The position numbers were made by a program, and so were the translations under genes. Shown here piece after piece: positions 9,962 to 29,168 of a DNA stretch of 46,602 nucleotides. Location of the stretch: the IMG/VR virus record IMGVR_UViG_2724679140_000012; one strand, 5' to 3'. The notes under the pieces were generated by a model that made no database searches, had not been told where the DNA came from, and worked only from the letters and a program-made list of their open reading frames with translations. Position 1 is the first letter of the stretch, and each line of letters begins with the position of its first letter. This DNA is from a virus. Its lineage: Duplodnaviria > Heunggongvirae > Uroviricota > Caudoviricetes.

Positions 9962-10585
9962 TTATGCGACCTCGGAAGGAAGTCCAATCATCTTATTCAA
10001 ATCTTCTACCCGTAAAGCAGGAAGTGCTGCACTTGCTTTATCTGCTTCTTTTGGTAGCAACTCTTTGCTTTCAGGCCAGACCTCAATAAGTCGCTTAACT
10101 GTTGTGACTGAGTTCAAAGCAGCCCATACATTTGATTCGATATCCTTTTTCCTGGCTTCAAGTTTTTGTTGCAATGCGCAGATTTCATCAAACCTTTTTG
10201 TTATTTTGTGTTCTGCGTCAAACATGCATTTATCTTGGTCGGGGGTAGGGAGCAATATATCTTCACCGTTGCCGTCTTTTCCGTATGAATGCCAGCCAAC
10301 CCTTCTTCCTGATACAGTCAGATAAATCGAACTTGAACGGGCATCGCATGAGTAAAATGAACATCCCAGCTTTTCAAGTTCTTCGCTTATAGCCATTAAC
10401 TTGGATGCCAGCTGGTCCACTTCCTCAGTTTTCTTTTTCCCGCCAAACGCAACAACTCTGGCATCAAGTGCAAGCTGGTTCTTTAACTTTGTTACTTCTT
10501 CAAGTTCAGTGAATACCCCGGACTTAATTAAAGCGTTGCGTGCTATTACTTCTTTTATTGTCGTAGTTAAGCGGATTGATGACAT
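9962..10585 (-). CDS. Hypothetical protein, 207 aa
   Basis: ATG at 10585-10583 with GAGAGGA upstream; the track's longer ORF has an N-terminal extension without RBS. Confidence 0.7.
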   Translation of the reverse strand: MSSIRLTTTIKEVIARNALIKSGVFTELEEVTKLKNQLALDARVVAFGGKKKTEEVDQLASKLMAISEELEKLGCSFYSCDARSSSIYLTVSGRRVGWHSYGKDGNGEDILLPTPDQDKCMFDAEHKITKRFDEICALQQKLEARKKDIESNVWAALNSVTTVKRLIEVWPESKELLPKEADKASAALPALRVEDLNKMIGLPSEVA

Positions 10586-10721
10586 ATTAATTCCTCTCAA
10601 ATAAGTGGTTTGCTGCCTAATTTCATTTTCTGGCGACCAACACAAGTCACACCCATTTCACTGCGTGGCTTGCGGTAGTAAATACGGTTATTTATGTCAT
10701 TAAAAACCAGCATGAGCGTGG

Positions 10722-14044: not shown

Positions 14045-14921
14045 GTTAGCTGATTACAGGCATAACCCTGTACAACATCAGGAGGCATCCAGTATGGGGT
14101 ATGTCTCTATACACCGCCAGTTTATGGACAGCAGGCTCTATAAGGACTCTCAGGCAGTACATCTTTGGCTTCACTTAATCCTCAAGGCTAATCACGAATC
14201 TACTGTCGTCAATACGGATATCGGGCCGATAACTGTTGATCGCGGTCAGATGATAACTGGACGCCCGTCGCTGGTCAGAGAAACATTCATCCCAGACAAC
14301 AAAGTTCGGAGCTTATTACGGACTTTTGAGTCGAAAGGGATGCTTAATATTTGCTCGATGGGGAAGAAATTTAGCCTGTTTACAATCGTTAAATATGACG
14401 ATTTTCAGGCAAAAAATTGTCCAACGGTTGTCCAACGGTTGTCCAACGCAAACACCAGTAATGGCGCGGCTCTCAGCGGAGATTGTCCAACGGTTGTCCA
14501 ACGGTTGTCCATAAACAATAATATAAATAATATCTCTAATACTGACGTATTAGAGAGTACCGCAGCAGACAAAAAGTCTGACAAGAAAAAACCTTCCGTT
14601 AGCTGTCAGGATGTTGTCGATGCTTACCACGAAATCCTTCCTGAAGCGCCAAAAATCCGCGCACTGAATGACAAGCGTAAAAACCAGATCCGAACGTTCT
14701 GGCGCAAAGCCGGAGTGATAACCCGCCAGCTTGACGGGCATGGGTTCACGATGCAGGACTGGAGAAATTATTTGAGCTACGTAGGCGAAAATTGCCGATG
14801 GATGTTCGAAGAGCGTCCAAACCATCAACGCGGAACCGTCTGGCACAAAAAGGGATTTGATTTCCTGCTTAACGACAATACCTACCTGAAAGTTCGTGAG
14901 GGTGAACACGATGACCGATAA
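14031..14921 (+). CDS. Replication initiator, lambda O / P22 gene-18-like (alternative start at 14094)
   Basis: Contains the origin iterons inside the coding sequence (encoding repeated CPTVVQRLS peptide), as in lambda O; both candidate starts have Shine-Dalgarno sequences. Confidence 0.85.
   Translation: MGVVKLADYRHNPVQHQEASSMGYVSIHRQFMDSRLYKDSQAVHLWLHLILKANHESTVVNTDIGPITVDRGQMITGRPSLVRETFIPDNKVRSLLRTFESKGMLNICSMGKKFSLFTIVKYDDFQAKNCPTVVQRLSNANTSNGAALSGDCPTVVQRLSINNNINNISNTDVLESTAADKKSDKKKPSVSCQDVVDAYHEILPEAPKIRALNDKRKNQIRTFWRKAGVITRQLDGHGFTMQDWRNYLSYVGENCRWMFEERPNHQRGTVWHKKGFDFLLNDNTYLKVREGEHDDR
14417..14556. repeat. Replication origin: two blocks of three TTGTCCAACGG iterons followed by an AT-rich region
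   Basis: Direct repeats at 14417-14449 and 14482-14512, then AAACAATAATATAAATAATATCTCTAATA. Confidence 0.85.
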
Positions 14922-17376
14922 TTTTTATGCGCCGCCCCATAGCATCGAGGCAGAGCAGGCGGTGATTGGTGGATTGCTTCTGGATGATGACAGCAGTGAG
15001 CGCGTCCAGAAAGTTCTGGCGATGCTGAAGCCTGATTCATTTTACAGCCGACCACACAAAATCCTTTTCGAAGAAATAACCTGAATGCACCGGGAGCAAA
15101 AGCCAGTAGATGGCCTGACGCTTTTCGATGAACTGGAGCGTAAATCGTTAACGGCGTCTGTTGGCGGTTTTGCTTATATCGCTGAGATCGCAAAGAACAC
15201 GCCAAGCGCAGCAAACATCGTTGCTTATGCAATGCAGGTTCGCGAAACCGCAATGGAACGCTACGCCATCAACCGCATGACTGAAGCGACGGAATTGCTC
15301 TATTCCCGCAACGGAATGACTGCAACGCAGAAGTACGAAGCTATTCAGGCGATTTTCACGCAACTGACAGACCATGCAAAAACCGGATCGCGTCGCGGCC
15401 TTCGCTCATTTGGTGAGGTCATGGAAGACTGGGTTAGCGACCTTGAGAAGCGATTTGACCCGTCAGGCGAACAACGAGGAATGAGCACAGGGATCCCATC
15501 GCTGGACAGGATGCTGTCACCGAAAGGTCTGGTGAAAGGCTCTCTGTTCGTCATTGGCGCTCGCCCTAAGATGGGGAAAGCGCAACCGCTTAATTCACGC
15601 ATTTTGCTTGCTGATGGTTCATGGACAACATTTCGTGACGTATGTGTTGGAGATTCCCTAGCATCAGTGGATGGACAACCATCATTCGTGTCTGGAGTTT
15701 TTCCTCAAGGGGAGCGAGATATTTACCGAGTTACGTTCTCTGACGGAAGAACCGTTGATTGCGCGGATGATCATTTGTGGGAAATTCATAGTAACCGTAT
15801 TACCGGTGGCGTTGATGTTGTAGACACCTGCCGCCTACGGGACATGATGGAATGCGTTCGCTATCAAAGCCGCATTCATGTTCCTGGTATTAGCGGTGAC
15901 TTCGGATTGCCTGTTGATTTAGGGATTAGCCCATGGCTGTTAGGTGCGTTACTTGGCGATGGAAATCTTGCAGGTACGCCACGAATCAGCATGACGGAAC
16001 CATACATCATTGAGCGAGTAAGATCTGAAGTGGGTGACGATATTGAAGTCAGGCATGTTTCTGGCTGCGATTACTCCCTATCTCACAAGTTTAGCCGCAA
16101 ATTATCTCTTACGCGGGTTATGCAACGGCTTGGTATCTACGGCCGGATGTCAGAGATTAAAATTATCCCGGATATTATTTTTTCTGCTGATAAGCAAACT
16201 CGTATTGATGTTCTATGCGGATTACTTGAAACCGATGGTTGGGTTGAAGGAAATAATGCCCTGCGCTTTAGCTCGGCAAGCAAGTTCCTGTCAGATGGTG
16301 TAAAGCGGCTGGTGCATTCTCTTGGTGGCGTGTGTCGTATGACAACCAAACAGGAGCCGAAATTCAGTTATAAGGGAGAAATGCGCAAAGGTATGGATGC
16401 CCATATTTGCGCAATCAGGTTGCCTGATGAGGTTCTATCACACATAAAATCTCCACGCCTGAAGCAAAAATTCACTGCAAAACGCATCAAAACAAGTGCG
16501 CCTGTTATCACGTCGGTTGAGTATATTGGACGTGAAGAGTGCATTTGCATCATGGTATCCCACGAGAGACATTTGTATGCAACTGACGGATACATTCTAA
16601 CCCACAACACCACGCTATACAGCCAGATGGCAATCAATTGCGCAGTGCATGAGAAAAAGCCCGCTCTGATGTTCAGCCTTGAAATGCCAGGTGATCAGAT
16701 ACTGGAAAAACTGGTAGGGCAGAAGTCTGGTGTTAACCCGAATATTTTTTACCTTCCGGCGACAAATGACGCCGATGACGGCTATCAGGGTGATTACGAT
16801 GGTGACTTCAACAGGGCGATCGAAACAGCCAATCGCTTGAGTGAAATCGACATGCTTTACATCGACGACACGCCGGGATTATCTCTGGCTCAAATCGTCA
16901 GCGAAAGCCGTCGAATCAAGCGAGAAAAAGGATGTGTTGGCATGATTCTGGTCGATTACCTGACACTAATGACCGCTGAGAAGGCCGATCGCAACGACCT
17001 TGCTTACGGCATGATCACCAAAGGACTGAAGAACCTTGCCAAAGAGCTTGATTGCGTTGTTGTGCTTCTGACACAGCTTAACCGCGCACTGGAAAGCCGA
17101 ACCAATAAACGCCCATTACCAAGTGACTCACGAGATACAGGGCAGATTGAACAGGATTGCGATTATTGGGTCGGGATCCATCGTGAAGGCGCTTTTGATG
17201 ACAGTGTTCCACCTGGGGAAACTGAACTAATCCTTCGTCTCAATCGTCATGGCAATACCGGCACGGTGTATTGCATTCAGGCAAATGGCTCTATTTATGA
17301 CACAGACCAACAGTCCGCTGAAATGCGCCGCCGTGAACGCGAGGAACCGCAATCCAAGAAGAAAGGAGGATTCTGA
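14911..17376 (+). CDS. DnaB-family replicative helicase (P22 gene-12-like) containing an intein; reading frame interrupted by in-frame TGA at 15082-15084
   Basis: N-terminal PPHSIEAEQAVIGGLLLDD and VGGFAYIAEIAKNTPSAANI align with E. coli DnaB; Walker A GARPKMGK is split from TTLYSQ by a 343-aa insertion; ORF track shows 14896..15084 and 15085..17376 in the same frame separated by TGA. Confidence 0.85.
15580..16608 (+). other. Intein (343 aa) with LAGLIDADG homing-endonuclease domain inserted in the helicase P-loop
   Basis: Insertion directly after GK of Walker A; ends THN followed by extein Thr; two LAGLIDADG-like motifs (LLGALLGDGNL, LCGLLETDGWV); first residue Ala; Trp in block B (DHLW), Cys in block F (CICIMV), Thr before HN. 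Confidence 0.8.
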
Positions 17377-23468: not shown

Positions 23469-24059
23469 ATGGCAAAGCTCACCGACAAACAAGAGCTGTT
23501 TGCCCGTGAGTACCTGAAAGATCTGAACGGCACACAGGCAGCTATCAGGGCGGGCTACAGCGAGAAGACCGCCAATGAGCAGGCATCTCGACTATTAGCA
23601 AATGTTAATGTTCAAAAATTCGTTGCTGAACTTAAATCCGCCCGCGTTGAACAGACGGGCATAGATGCCGCCTATGTTCTTCGTAGATTGGTTGAAATCG
23701 ACCAGATGGATGTGCTTGACATTCTCCTGCAAAACGGTGAGCTAAAACCCATTAAAGACTGGCCTAAAGTATGGCGCACAACGCTATCAGGAATGGATGT
23801 CGTGGAGATGGCATCCGCAGATAGCGCCGCACTTCTGAAGAAAATTAAATGGCCTGATAAGGTCAAAAACCTCGAACTTCTTGGTAAGCATGTTTCTGTT
23901 CAGGCGTTTAAAGAGCAAACATCTACAGAAATAACTGGAGCTGATGGCGGACCTGTTCGTTATGCCGATATGTCAGAAGAGTTACTTGAAGAGAAACTGA
24001 AGGAGCTTGGTAATGGCAGGCGCTCCAATCAGCTTGAATCGAAACGCTCAGATTTATGA
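23469..24059 (+). CDS. Terminase small subunit, 196 aa
   Basis: N-terminal MAKLTDKQELFAREYLKDLNGTQAAIRAGYS is the typical small-terminase HTH signature; immediately upstream of the large subunit. Confidence 0.85.
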   Translation: MAKLTDKQELFAREYLKDLNGTQAAIRAGYSEKTANEQASRLLANVNVQKFVAELKSARVEQTGIDAAYVLRRLVEIDQMDVLDILLQNGELKPIKDWPKVWRTTLSGMDVVEMASADSAALLKKIKWPDKVKNLELLGKHVSVQAFKEQTSTEITGADGGPVRYADMSEELLEEKLKELGNGRRSNQLESKRSDL

Positions 24060-25533
24060 GTTGCACAAAGAGCTGGCTATCCGATCAGCAAGAAAAAACC
24101 TTCTCGATTTCACTTTGTACACTAATCCGCAATACGAAACAGGTTGGTTTAACGAGCTGCTTTGTGCTGAGCTAGATCACTTTCTGGATGAAGTTAAAGC
24201 CGGAAACATGCCTAGGCTAATGGTGTTTGCCCCTCCGCGCTCAGGAAAGAGTGAGTTGTGCTCTCGCCGCTTCCCAGCGTATGTGTTAGGACAGCATCCA
24301 TCATGGAACATTATTTCGTGCTCATATTCTTCTGACCTGTCAGACCGAATGAGCCGTGACGTTAAACGCATTATCACCTCTGACAAGTACGCTGATGTTT
24401 TCCCTGACGTGAAAATACCTTCAGGACGTAGTTTGGCGGGAGGCATCAACAAAACCGAGCTATGGGAACCAGTGGATGCCAAAGGCGAACTACACGGCGG
24501 CTCATATCGTTCTGCTGGTGTTAACGGTGGTATCACCGGTCAGGGTATGAACATTGGGGTTATTGATGACCCCGCGAAAGATTACAAAACCGCATCGTCT
24601 CCAATTTACCAGGAAGCGGTGATGGACTGGTATGACACGACATTCTTCACTCGTGTTGACCCGAAGATAAACGGCATCGTCATCATCCTGACACGCTGGC
24701 ATCAAAACGATCTCGCCGGACAGTTATTAAAACTGGCAGAAGAAGGCGGGGAACGCTGGCGCGTAGTTAGCTTCCCTATGGAAGCTGAAAAGGAAGAGAT
24801 TCATGAGCTCAACGGTAAAGTATATCGACTGCGCAATCCCGGTGAAATTCTGTTCCCTGAGCGCATGCCGAGAGAGTTCGTAGAGAAATGCAAACAACGC
24901 GGTTCCCTTGTATGGAATGCTCTTTATCAGCAAAGACCAACCGCCAAAGGCGGGCGGCTTATTAAGTCTGAATGGTTTGGTGAATATTCGGTACTCCCTC
25001 CCATGCAATGGCGTGCCGTCTATGGAGACACCGCACAGAAAACAAAAGAGGTCAACGACTTCTCAGTATTCGAGCACTGGGGGCTTGGTACTGACGGGTA
25101 CATCTATCTGATCGATATGATTCGCGGTAAATGGGAGGCCGATGAATTACAACGCCGTGCTGTTGCATTCTGGGAAAAGTGCAAAACTCTGAAGAATGGG
25201 CCGCTTCGCCACATGGCGATAGAGGACAAGTCATCTGGCACAGGCCTGATACAGAACATCCGTAAAAAAGCGATATGCCCCATCAAAGCAATTCAGCGCG
25301 ATAAGGATAAGTACACGCGACTGATGGACGTACAGGGTTATATCGAGTCCGGTTACATCAAGTTGCCCAGCAGCGCACCATTCATCAACGACTTCCTCGT
25401 TGAGATGGAAGCCATTAATCCTGATTTCAATACGCACGACGACCAGCTTGATCCGATGATGGATGCCATCGATGAGATGAAAAATGGCAATGGTCCGTTA
25501 CGTATATCTGAAGACCTTTTGAGGCTCGCATAG
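24007..25533 (+). CDS. Terminase large subunit, ~508 aa (start 24007 or 24013)
   Basis: Walker A PPRSGKSE, ATPase and nuclease-domain acidic motifs; position after the small subunit. Confidence 0.9.
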
Positions 25534-27068
25534 TGTTTAATTTTTTGAGAAAGAAAAAATCTGAGCCTCAGAAAGAAGAGGCGAAACAGCCAATGTCTCT
25601 GGCGAATGTTCTTGCGATTATTAACGAACAGGAGCGAATTAAAAATGAAGGCGAGGCATTGCGTAGAATTGAGAGATACGTACCCCCGCCAGGCGTTATT
25701 CCTGAACATATTGAGGAGTCAGCTCTGGCGATGGACTCCACGCCGTACAGTTACCTTAACTCAGCAAACATCACCGCATATGGCTACGGTGGATTTCCTG
25801 GCTACCCATATCTGTCTCAACTTGCTCAGTTGCCGGAGTATCGCAAGATTACTGGCACGATAGCAGAAGAGATGACGCGAAAATGGATTGAGCTGAAACA
25901 TGTAGGTAAAGACGATGGTGACGACAAGGCCGATAAGATTCGCCAGCTTGACGACGCATTAAAGCGTTTCAGAGTGCGAGAGAAGTTTCGCGAGGCGGCG
26001 GAACATGACGGTTACTTCGGGCGCGGACAGATTTATATCGACGTGAAGACGCCAAGCGGTAACTCAGCCTGGCTGGTTCCCGACGAACTGGATAAGAAGC
26101 TCTATATCAGCCCGCGCAAGATTACCAAAGGAAGCCTGAATGGTTTCCGCGTTATCGAGGCCATGTGGACATACCCTGGTGTGTATAACGCTGATAACCC
26201 TCTCAGTCCTGATTTCTTCAATCCATCTGAATGGTATGTCATGGGGCGCACGGTTCACGCCAGCCGTATGTTGACAATGATTTCTCGACAGGTGCCAGAC
26301 ATTCTCAAAGCTGCGTACAACTTCGGCGGCTTGTCGCTGAGTCAGATGGCAGAGCCATACGTGCAGAACTGGTTGAGAACGCGTGACAGCGTTAGCGATC
26401 TGGTTCATTCGTTTGTGGTCTATGGGCTGAAGACGAACATGCAGAGTGCCTTGTCTGGAATTGCAGACCCAAACCTGTTTATGCGTGCCGAGCTCTTTAA
26501 TAAGGTTCGCGACAATCGCGGAATGTTCCTTATTGATAAGGATGGAGAAGAATTCTTCCAGTTTGTGACAAGTCTGTCCGGAGTTGATGCTCTTCAGGCG
26601 CAAGCGCAGGAACAAATGGCATCGGTATCAAGCATTCCTCTGGTTAAGCTCCTTGGCATCACTCCTAACGGGCTAAACGCTTCATCTGATGGCGAAATCC
26701 GCGTCTTCTATGACTCAATACACGCCATGCAGGAGAATCTGTTCAGGGTGCCGCTGAAAACAGTGCTGGATGTTATCCAGTTGAATGAATTTGGCGAGAT
26801 TGACCCTGACATTGATTTTGAATTCCTGCCGCTGTACGAGCTTACAGAAGCAGAGAAAGCCGAGATCATGAAACATCAGTCTGAGGCTGATAAGAACTAT
26901 GCCGAAGCTGGCGTGTTCGACCTTGATGCAATAAGAAGCATGCGCCAGTCGGATAAGGCCAGCCCATACCACATGATGGAATCTGAATATGACGAAGAAG
27001 AGTACGAAAACGAGTCCATCGAAGAAGGATTCGAAGACACGGAAAACCCTTCGTCCAGTCAGAGCTAA
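25533..27068 (+). CDS. Portal protein, 511 aa
   Basis: Large ORF directly after terminase with acidic C-terminus; synteny. Confidence 0.8.
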
Positions 27069-27807
27069 CGCCGGAGTTCATGAGTGGTATCGCTCTGAGC
27101 TTCTCAAGCTGGTCAGTGAGATGAATAAGTCTTACCGGTACTGGCTTGAGGCTGCATACAAAGACAGCATGGCGATGGATGCCAGCCCCGCAAATGAATT
27201 GAAGCGCAGGCTGGCTAATCTTGGCAAGCAGTGGGAGCATAAATTCAATGAACTGGCTAAGAAACTGGCTGATCGCTTCGTTGATAAGACACTGCGCAAC
27301 ACCGACGTTTCGTTACACTCAGCGTTAAAGGCTGGCGGATTTACCGTTAAGTTCACAATGAATGACGAGCTTAAGAACGTGATGCAGGCTGTCGTTAACG
27401 AGAACGTCAACCTGATTAAATCCATACCTGAACACTATCACACACAGGTTGAGACGATAGTCATGCAGTCTGTCAGCCGTGGTCGTGACCTTAGCTATCT
27501 CACTGATGAACTGGTTAAGCGATATGGCATTACACGCAGACGCGCTGAGACGATTGCACGCGATCAGAACAACAAAGCTACAGCAGTAATTCAGTCTGAA
27601 CGGCAGAAGAAGTTAGGAATCACCAAAGGAATCTGGCGTCACTCACACGCCGGGAAGCAGCCAAGGCCATCCCATGTGAAAGCTGACGGTAAAGAGTTCG
27701 ACCTCGATAAAGGGCTGTATCTCGATGGTGAATGGGTGCTGCCGGGAGAGGCTATCAACTGCCGTTGTGCGTGGTCTCCTGTTATCCCTGGGATAGATAG
27801 AAAATGA
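26989..27807 (+). CDS. Head morphogenesis protein, Mu F / SPP1 gp7 family (start uncertain), ~272 aa
   Basis: C-terminal NCRCAW motif and position after portal; track start overlaps portal by 80 nt. Confidence 0.75.
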
Positions 27808-27896
27808 TTGAGGTTTTATGGTCTCTGGGCTTAGTGTTGATTTTTGGTTGCTTAATGATTGCACTACTGAAAATAGCTATGCCCAAGAGGAAATAA
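27804..27896 (+). CDS. Possible 30-aa hydrophobic micro-ORF ([30 protein letters not shown])
   Basis: ATG overlaps the MuF-like stop (ATGA); single TM helix; followed by a terminator. Confidence 0.3.
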   Translation: MIEVLWSLGLVLIFGCLMIALLKIAMPKRK

Positions 27897-27898
27897 TG

Positions 27899-27918
27899 GC
27901 CGCTACTGCGGCTTTTTT
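27899..27918 (+). terminator. Intrinsic terminator within the late operon
   Basis: Hairpin GCCGC-UACU-GCGGC followed by UUUUUU. Confidence 0.6.
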
Positions 27919-27941
27919 ATTGCCTGCCGAAAGGTAAATGC

Positions 27942-29168
27942 ATGCCATTACGCAAAGTTAAAGGCGACTGGCAATGGGGATATCACGGATTGGCATTCGA
28001 CAAGGCAACGGTGCGCTCCTTTGATAAGGATGGGCGTTTGCATATCGAAGTGACGCCAATCAGTAAGGCTAACGTTTGCCCTTATTATGGACGCGAAATC
28101 CCTAATTACAGATCGCTAGGTTTACAGCCTGACAAAGTTTACTACCTGCTTCGCGACCCGAAAGAGTTAGCCAAAGCAGCATCTACATTCAACAACATCC
28201 CGCTCCTTAACGAACACATTCCGGTTACTGCTTCAGACCCTCAGAAGATGGCTGTGGTTGGTTCTACTGGTACTGATGCTGAGTTTGACGGGACTTATCT
28301 CAAGAATTCGCTTGTTGTCTGGGACGCAGATTCTATCTCTGGAATCGAGACAGACGAGAAGAAAGAACTTTCGTCGGCCTACAGATATGTAGCTGACATG
28401 ACCCCCGGCGTGCATGAAGGACAGCCATACGATGGTGTAATGCGCGATATCGTCGGGAACCACGTTGCTCTCGTAACAGAGGGAAGAGCCGGATCCGACG
28501 TTGTTGTCGGGGATTCAATACCAACAGGAATGAAATCAATGTCAGAACTTGCTAAAAAGTTGATGGCAGTTATCACGCCGATGCTGGCCAGTGATGAGAA
28601 GCCAGAAGAAGTGGAAAAGAAAGTGCAAAAGGTTGTTGAAGACGAAGCCACTCAGGCTGAGAGAGATAATGAGTCAGAAGCAGAGCGTCTGAAACGTGAA
28701 GAGGATGAACTAAAAGAGCGTGAAGAACGTGAGCGAAAGGATCGTGATCGTGACCGCAAAGAAGCGGAAGACGAAAATGATGACGGCAAGGATAAAAAGA
28801 CTGCCGAGGATGAAGACGATGATGAGAATAAAGCAGCTATGGATGCCGCATTGATTCGAAAAGCTGAAGAGAATGTGATGGGGCGTATCCGTCAAGCCAA
28901 TGAGGCTCGAGAATGCGTTCGCCCTCTGGTAGGCGATGTGAGCCTGGTAGCAATGGATTCCGCAGAGTCTATTTACCGATTCGCTCTTGATTCAATCGGT
29001 GCAGAACATAAAGGAGTTCATCCTTCAGCACTTAAATCGATGGTTGAATTCGCTATCAGCCAGAAAGCGGTAGTTCGCAAACCATCTCATGGTATGGGTA
29101 TGGATGCTGCCGCAACCAATTCTTTCGCCAAGGCATTTCCTGGCGCAACTAAACTGAAACGGAGCTAA
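27942..29168 (+). CDS. Putative prohead scaffold/protease (DUF2213-like) with highly charged E/K/D/R-rich central region, 408 aa
   Basis: Position between MuF-like and capsid genes; low-complexity charged coiled-coil typical of scaffolds. Confidence 0.65.

Follow-up and report, generated by a model that had tools for sequence, protein, structure and literature searches.

We analysed a viral DNA stretch of 46,602 nucleotides (IMG/VR record IMGVR_UViG_2724679140_000012, Caudoviricetes), hereafter the window, and found that its helicase gene is interrupted by what is very probably a bifunctional mobile element, namely a class 3 intein whose HINT domain is split by a two-motif LAGLIDADG homing endonuclease (15580-16608, + strand). 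From the insertion itself, its motifs, its fold, its conservation in a protein family and its pattern in bacterial populations, we infer protein splicing, class 3 chemistry and endonuclease activity. The host gene (14911-17376, + strand) encodes a DnaB-family helicase, and the window is 100% identical to Escherichia coli strain IGC_RcoliRes_1.1 (NZ_CP054662.1), in which it belongs to a lambdoid prophage integrated adjoining ybhC.

The insertion is in frame, measures 1029 nucleotides and translates to 343 residues which start with AQPLN and end with YILTHN. It lies precisely between GARPKMGK and TTLYSQ of an HK022/Sf6-type phage helicase and is followed by TTLYSQMAINCA. Because phage Sf6 gp44 and one E. 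coli prophage allele, both without the intein, read uninterrupted GARPKMGKTTLYSQ, the boundaries are exact to the nucleotide. As is characteristic of inteins, the insertion thus occupies a conserved site of the host protein, and uninterrupted homologues of that protein exist. An earlier note on this DNA had described a 343-residue insertion splitting the Walker A P-loop of a prophage DnaB-like helicase, and the translation together with the empty-site alleles bears this out. The N-extein shares 98-99% identity with Sf6 gp44 and with HK022-type P genes. When the intact allele of another strain was examined, the NCBIfam model TIGR03600 ('phage replicative helicase, DnaB family') matched it with 557.8 bits (cutoff 498.65), and this match falls in two stretches on either side of residues 224-566. 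Nucleotide composition revealed no sharp boundary, with a G+C content of about 0.44-0.49 across the intein versus about 0.48-0.53 in the exteins.

The splicing blocks A, B, F and G are all present, with the block B histidine (His65, B:10), a C-terminal asparagine (Asn343) and a nucleophilic Thr at +1. Every motif that the earlier note had listed, that is, the Ala start, DHLW, ECICIMV, THN followed by Thr and two LAGLIDADG motifs, can be read in the translation; DHLW corresponds to residues 64-67 within CADDHLW, and ECICIMV holds Cys321 and Cys323. Class 3 inteins are defined by the lack of Ser, Thr or Cys at position 1 and by a Trp(B:12)-Cys(F:4)-Thr(G:5) triplet (WCT), usually with Ser or Thr at +1, and most of them sit in ATPase P-loops of helicase-like proteins (PMC2807308; PMC3196547). 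Here, position 1 is Ala, the triplet is formed by W67, C323 and T341, and Thr occupies +1. Using phmmer against all Protein Data Bank (PDB) chains, the best matches were gp41-1_WCT (6riz), Msm DnaBi1 (6bs8) and Mch DnaB1 (6rix/6riy), which include class 3 DnaB inteins but also the class 1 intein gp41-1; PI-SceI was matched in the endonuclease part. H65 and W67 align to the His and Trp of 6bs8, 6rix and 6riz; particularly, W67 aligns to Trp67 of Msm DnaBi1 and the engineered W65 of gp41-1_WCT, and C323 to the catalytic Cys118 of Msm DnaBi1 and the engineered Cys107 of gp41-1_WCT. The class 3 signature suggested earlier is therefore present as a full triplet, each residue of which aligns to characterised class 3 DnaB inteins. 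The class 3 assignment is as strong as sequence, predicted structure and comparison allow, and the class 3 mechanism is predicted from the same features.

Conservation in the wider family points in the same direction and, with the high-confidence model described below, takes the motifs well outside what chance would give. A protein database search with the intein returned homologues of 27-52% identity, which are hosted by phage-type and cellular-type DnaB, PhoH-like ATPases, UvrD-like helicases and other P-loop proteins. H65, L66, W67, C323, T341, H342, N343 and Thr+1 are the same residue in every homologue covering the column, and Asp127, Asp219 and blocks D and H are also conserved. Every homologue with a DnaB or UvrD-like host starts with Ala, and across the homologues only the PhoH-hosted group departs from this, starting with Ser. 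The position of Cys321 varies (A, M, T or C), and this residue is therefore not a conserved nucleophile. Cys-x-Cys (F:2/F:4; residues 321-323, window 16540-16548) is common to the enterobacterial and PhoH-hosted clades; the cellular-DnaB clade has A, M or T at F:2 and so lacks it. This pair could influence how the catalytic Cys responds to redox conditions or metals.

All four endonuclease blocks (C, D, E and H) are intact, and both LAGLIDADG motifs keep their acidic residue (D127 and D219). The AlphaFold2 model built from the homologue alignment has a mean predicted local distance difference test score (pLDDT) of 91.3 and a predicted template modelling score (pTM) of 0.91. When the whole chain was compared with the PDB using Foldseek, PI-SceI (E 3e-17, query-normalised TM-score (TMq) 0.74), the TliVMA and PhoVMA inteins and PI-PfuI were matched, with intein-endonuclease matches spanning E 1e-17 to 1e-10 and TMq up to 0.75. 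The splicing domain matched Msm DnaBi1 (target-normalised TM-score (TMt) 0.85), Mch DnaB1 (TMt 0.80), many class 1 mini-inteins and, further, the Hedgehog autoprocessing domain and BIL domains. The model thus has the predicted HINT fold together with the predicted LAGLIDADG endonuclease fold. A domain insertion other than an intein is ruled out by the motifs, the fold and the empty-site alleles; the earlier note had named an unrelated domain without splicing blocks as the finding that would overturn its reading, and the blocks instead align to solved inteins. The coordinates of all features are collected in Table 1.

Table 1 Features of the interrupted helicase gene and of the terL region in the window.
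Feature	Position	Strand	Details
N-extein	14911..15579	+	codons 1-223; DnaB N-terminal domain, linker, first half of Walker A
In-frame TGA nonsense codon	15082..15084	+	codon 58 (Arg58 AGA to TGA), strain-specific; ATG (Met59) directly after (TGAATG)
Walker A, N-terminal part	15556..15579	+	GARPKMGK; Lys is residue -1; contiguous with TT in intein-less alleles
Intein	15580..16608	+	343 residues; HINT splicing domain split by LAGLIDADG homing endonuclease (predicted functions); exact 1029-nucleotide insertion relative to empty-site alleles
Splicing block A	15580..15618	+	AQPLNSRILLADG; Ala1 (GCG, 15580-15582) non-nucleophilic
Splicing block B	15745..15786	+	GRTVDCADDHLWEI; His65 B:10 (15772-15774), Trp67 B:12 (15778-15780)
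Endonuclease block C	15934..15969	+	first LAGLIDADG motif WLLGALLGDGNL, residues 119-130, Asp127
Endonuclease block D	16159..16182	+	KIIPDIIF; Lys194 and Pro197 invariant
Endonuclease block E	16210..16245	+	second LAGLIDADG motif VLCGLLETDGWV, residues 211-222, invariant Asp219
Endonuclease block H	16282..16329	+	KFLSDGVKRLVHSLGG; SLGG (247-250) invariant
Splicing block F	16537..16581	+	ECICIMVSHERHLYA; Cys321 F:2; Cys323 F:4 (16546-16548), predicted initiating nucleophile
Splicing block G and Thr+1	16582..16611	+	TDGYILTHN, then Thr+1 (ACC, 16609-16611); Thr341 G:5, His342 G:6, Asn343 G:7
C-extein including stop codon	16609..17376	+	TTLYSQ...; RecA-like ATPase domain; Pfam DnaB_C 182 bits
terL region	~24013-28119		NZ_CP054662.1 3516635-3520741; ISEc12 istA/istB about 25478-27780

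Taken as a mechanism, these features would work as follows. An intact allele would be translated into an 821-residue precursor with a disrupted ATP-binding site, and by analogy with other P-loop inteins (PMC6195587) the helicase would be inactive until splicing. Cys323, activated by His65 and Trp67, would attack the Lys(-1)-Ala1 bond and form a branched intermediate held by a block F thioester, from which the N-extein would be transferred onto the side chain of Thr+1. Cyclisation of Asn343 would then free the 343-residue intein, and an O-N shift would restore the Walker A sequence GARPKMGKTTLY in an active helicase of 478 residues. The freed intein, acting as a LAGLIDADG endonuclease, would cleave helicase alleles that lack the intein at their empty site ATGGGGAAA/ACGACGCTA (slashes mark intein junctions), the predicted substrate being CGCCCTAAGATGGGGAAA/ACGACGCTATACAGCCAGATGG, and repair of the cut allele would copy the intein in. 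Such homing would account for an intein that hardly varies among E. coli and Salmonella prophages whose helicase alleles have diverged.

The distribution of the intein was examined in complete E. coli genomes. Using megablast, the helicase gene was found in 390 of 5426 genomes, and the whole gene query was covered in 16 of the 390; in the others, 59% was covered in two pieces with the 1029 nucleotides missing. The 1029 nucleotides are likewise missing from all 87 matching phage records, including Sf6, HK620, HK75, HK633 and several Stx phages. At the protein level, the 821-residue precursor belongs to a 90%-identity cluster of 449 members, which was recovered by exact look-up and had not been returned by the homologue search with the intein. 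All 13 further cluster members that we fetched are 821 residues long. The members come from E. coli and Salmonella enterica serovar Alachua, and the Salmonella protein has an intein identical to that of the window together with several extein substitutions.

When nine intein-containing E. coli alleles were compared at the DNA level, the intein showed only 8 segregating sites in 1029 (nucleotide diversity 0.24%), whereas the N-extein had 38 in 669 (1.64%) and the C-extein 48 in 768 (2.04%). This is about 8-fold fewer segregating sites than in the flanking exteins (Fisher p=4e-13), and six of the eight intein polymorphisms are synonymous. The genes up- and downstream differ among the carriers, with different O-type initiators and nin-region genes. 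In addition, the Thr+1 codon (third base 16611) is ACC in all nine alleles. Two 40-mers were used as empty-site probes for the E. coli genomes, the window's own exteins holding window-specific single-nucleotide polymorphisms; the ACG version matched 354 genomes and the ACC version none, and no precise intein loss was detected with these probes. The ACC codon could be a co-converted donor base or the marker of a single origin. The data fit a young single intein that moves into diverged helicase alleles together with at least its adjacent base. The low diversity of the intein relative to the exteins also fits recent homing, although the pattern by itself does not prove that an endonuclease drove it.

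The intein is hidden by current annotation, because its flanks appear in RefSeq as two partial pseudogenes and the proteins are named as ordinary helicases. In all nine intein-containing genomes that we opened, the Prokaryotic Genome Annotation Pipeline (PGAP) calls the flanks partial pseudogenes, with a 'missing C-terminus' and a 'missing N-terminus', and leaves the 1029 nucleotides unannotated. The ends of these pseudogenes coincide with the borders of the intein. All source names shown for the 449-member cluster are 'helicase DnaB'.

The window itself holds a damaged copy. Its helicase frame is broken 498 nucleotides upstream of the intein by a TGA codon, with matches to Pfam DnaB (PF00772; DnaB_N) on both sides of the stop. 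The earlier note had treated the helicase gene as intact, which the premature stop at codon 58 rules out, and the prophage is defective. A TGA common to intein alleles, whether as programmed recoding or as a linked defect, is also ruled out, since codon 58 is AGA in the eight other intein-containing alleles, as it is in both intein-less alleles compared. These eight alleles are uninterrupted open reading frames of 821 residues. As a matter of speculation, the window copy could give the full precursor only by UGA read-through, and reinitiation at Met59 would give a truncated one. The prophage is defective independently of the helicase, because terL is split by ISEc12, an insertion sequence (IS) of the IS21 family, and an antirepressor gene is partial. 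The coding sequence of the intein in the window is unblemished, and most likely the intein here is carried along undamaged by a gene that was inactivated only recently, within a defective prophage.

Several observations weigh against an active, homing class 3 intein. Because codon 58 is TGA, no full precursor can come from the window copy. Of the Pfam intein and LAGLIDADG models against which the earlier note had proposed an alignment, LAGLIDADG_3 scored above its cutoff (25.1 versus 22.5 bits, at block E), but Hom_end_hint reached 20.8 bits, below its cutoff of 32.1. No dedicated intein splicing-domain model in Pfam or NCBIfam reached its threshold, and the intein-containing NCBIfam models matched below threshold only. 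The WCT signature alone is no proof of activity, because a WCT triplet grafted onto a class 1 intein gave no splicing (PMC7664689) and one class 3-like intein proved to be dead (PMC3196547). Furthermore, the low diversity of the intein can also be explained by one recent insertion followed by ordinary recombination of the flanks. With the intein in only about 4% of the E. coli genomes that have the helicase, any homing is not sweeping fast, and this low frequency also speaks for a different reading, in which the intein is competent for splicing, its endonuclease is now inactive, and inheritance is vertical or by ordinary recombination of lambdoid prophages. Lambdoid phages are notoriously mosaic. 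Extein polymorphisms lie 10-27 nucleotides from both junctions (15570, 15558 and 16635), and therefore co-conversion tracts would have to be short or later recombination frequent, which suits an inactive endonuclease as well. However, blocks C, D, E and H and the two catalytic Asp residues are undamaged and do not vary within the family, the intein has far fewer segregating sites than either flank, and the identical intein protein occurs in a Salmonella allele with several extein substitutions. We consider the loss of endonuclease activity rather unlikely on this balance, though a possibility to be taken seriously.

It is also conceivable that the intein is a dead, non-splicing remnant, with a non-functional helicase in all carriers and prophages that are cryptic or rely on another helicase. 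The pseudogene calls on both halves in the nine records, the nonsense codon and the IS element in terL of the window, and a truncated intein-fusion variant (P0002, described below) can be cited for this view, as can the class 3-like intein Arth_1007 of Arthrobacter, which is dead in a prophage remnant (PMC3196547). Yet eight of the nine alleles at the DNA level and the 13 further cluster members are full open reading frames, the polymorphisms in intein and exteins are mostly synonymous, and all catalytic residues are kept here, whereas Arth_1007 lacks His B:10 and Cys F:4. In addition, PGAP stops exactly at the intein borders, so the pseudogene calls are an annotation artefact. We therefore regard a dead remnant in all carriers as very improbable. 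Smaller still is the chance that splicing takes a route other than that of class 3, for example by a direct attack of Thr+1 on the N-terminal junction, which is the path of class 2 (KlbA-like) inteins. Class 2 inteins also start with Ala (PMC3196547), and a mechanism is not readable from sequence with certainty. Against this stand the full invariant triplet, which class 2 inteins lack, the restriction of class 2 so far to KlbA (PMC3196547), and the class 3 DnaB inteins as nearest solved relatives by sequence. A bifunctional class 3 intein thus remains our strongly favoured reading.

Several known systems resemble the helicase intein. The closest relative in INPHARED phage genomes, found by translated search, is the intein in replication protein P of Stx2 phages, with 46% identity over all 343 residues. 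It is carried by Min27, phi24B (vB_EcoP_24B) and many Stx2a phages, and an orthologue occurs in a Shigella flexneri prophage. Read directly in its sequence, GVNGHGK/ACPLNEPILLADG...DHLWE...ECLCIMVDHPRHLY...ATHN/TEV, this intein has the same signature of A1, DHLW, ECLCIMV and THN/T, follows the P-loop Lys of a lambdoid replication protein, and combines a HINT domain with a two-motif LAGLIDADG endonuclease. In contrast, its host is a TOPRIM primase fused to a gp4-type helicase, a family unrelated to the DnaB-family helicase; its flanking DNA is different, and therefore its endonuclease target is different. As the two inteins are only about half identical, they are separate lineages. The insert in Min27/phi24B replication protein P was published as an intein in 2012 (PMC3430580), and Tori et al. 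2010 had mentioned Shigella prophage primase inteins without an N-terminal nucleophile (PMC2807308). The earlier note had called a class 3 intein in an enterobacterial prophage replication gene notable; an intein with this signature is indeed present there, but it is not the first, and the Stx-phage precedent means that this claim of novelty was set too high.

Inteins at the identical insertion point (GARPKMGK/A...THN/TTL) and in the same helicase family were found in prophage DnaB-like helicases of at least two species, Leminorella grimontii and Aeromonas piscicola, a lower bound from a search with two peptide patterns. Together with the metagenomic inteins P0001, P0004, P0006 and P0007, they are 48-52% identical to the helicase intein and have the same class 3 residues; they differ in being about 50% diverged and in belonging to other genera. 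These same-site relatives show an old lineage of which the E. coli/Salmonella variant is one branch. In our literature searches, no paper was found that describes these same-site inteins, and none on an intein of the HK022/Sf6-type helicase.

Among characterised inteins, the Msm DnaBi1, M. chimaera DnaB1 and M. leprae DnaB inteins are also class 3 WCT inteins in the DnaB P-loop (PMC6195587). The mycobacterial inteins share the His65/Trp67 numbering and the aligned catalytic Cys, with TMt 0.80-0.85, but they are mini-inteins without an endonuclease, reside in cellular DnaB of Actinobacteria and have ~28% identity over the N-terminal splicing region. At block B:7, Msm DnaBi1 has Asp where the helicase intein has Ala62, and for the redox partner Cys48 of Msm DnaBi1 no counterpart is established here. 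The class 3 prototype, the mycobacteriophage Bethlehem DnaB intein, is similar in its phage helicase host, its length of about 341 residues, its LAGLIDADG endonuclease, its non-nucleophilic residue 1, its WCT triplet and its Thr+1, and experiments demonstrated that it splices and that it needs the block F Cys (PMC2807308). By its published description, it differs in having Pro1 after Gln(-1) and an actinophage host. PI-SceI, the yeast VMA1 intein, is the best whole-chain structural match and has the same organisation of intein and LAGLIDADG endonuclease, with block E aligned; unlike the helicase intein, it belongs to class 1, with Cys1 and Cys+1, and has an additional region for DNA recognition, and the identity is about 15%.

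The intein of the helicase gene is undescribed in the literature that we found, but its type is already known from the Stx2 phages, and the known intein classes and mechanisms are unchanged by it. According to one review-type statement, E. coli and Salmonella appear to have no inteins (PMC5050341); here, an intact and apparently mobile intein occurs in prophages of both and was overlooked through annotation. A native enterobacterial class 3 intein with Thr+1 and a predicted internal Cys nucleophile may be of use for protein engineering in E. coli, and it may aid the study of class 3 chemistry outside Actinobacteria. As the intein hardly varies, its exteins have diverged and conserved empty sites number in the hundreds, the well-known lambdoid phages also offer a tractable setting for homing. 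A mycobacterial P-loop DnaB intein (PMC6195587) offers a precedent for conditional splicing under redox or zinc control. We mention a more far-reaching proposal, which we rate as quite improbable: an active homing class 3 intein would be spreading in the HK022/Sf6-type helicase of E. coli and Salmonella prophages, its splicing possibly conditional on redox state or zinc through Cys323 and Cys321. If this were true, the condition of the host cell would control, at the post-translational level, whether an induced prophage replicates.

Some further observations were made on relatives of the intein and on the window. The inteins of PhoH-like ATPases (MRGR/S...THN/TF; P0009, P0012, P0014, P0016, P0019, P0021 and P0022) have the full WCT triplet with Ser1, and they belong to the ambiguous group of WCT inteins with an N-terminal nucleophile that was mentioned by Tori et al. 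2010 (PMC2807308). The variant P0002, found in NCBI and Logan on a contig of 235 kb, is an open reading frame of 565 residues. It joins the helicase N-extein and ~110 residues from the start of the intein (99% identical) to a phage stabilisation-type protein (PF11134), and it appears to have arisen from the intein allele by deletion, as a copy in decay. Finally, the early-left region of the window (~10028-10651; record 3534103-3534726) contains a gene annotated as 'Nmad5 family putative nucleotide modification protein'.

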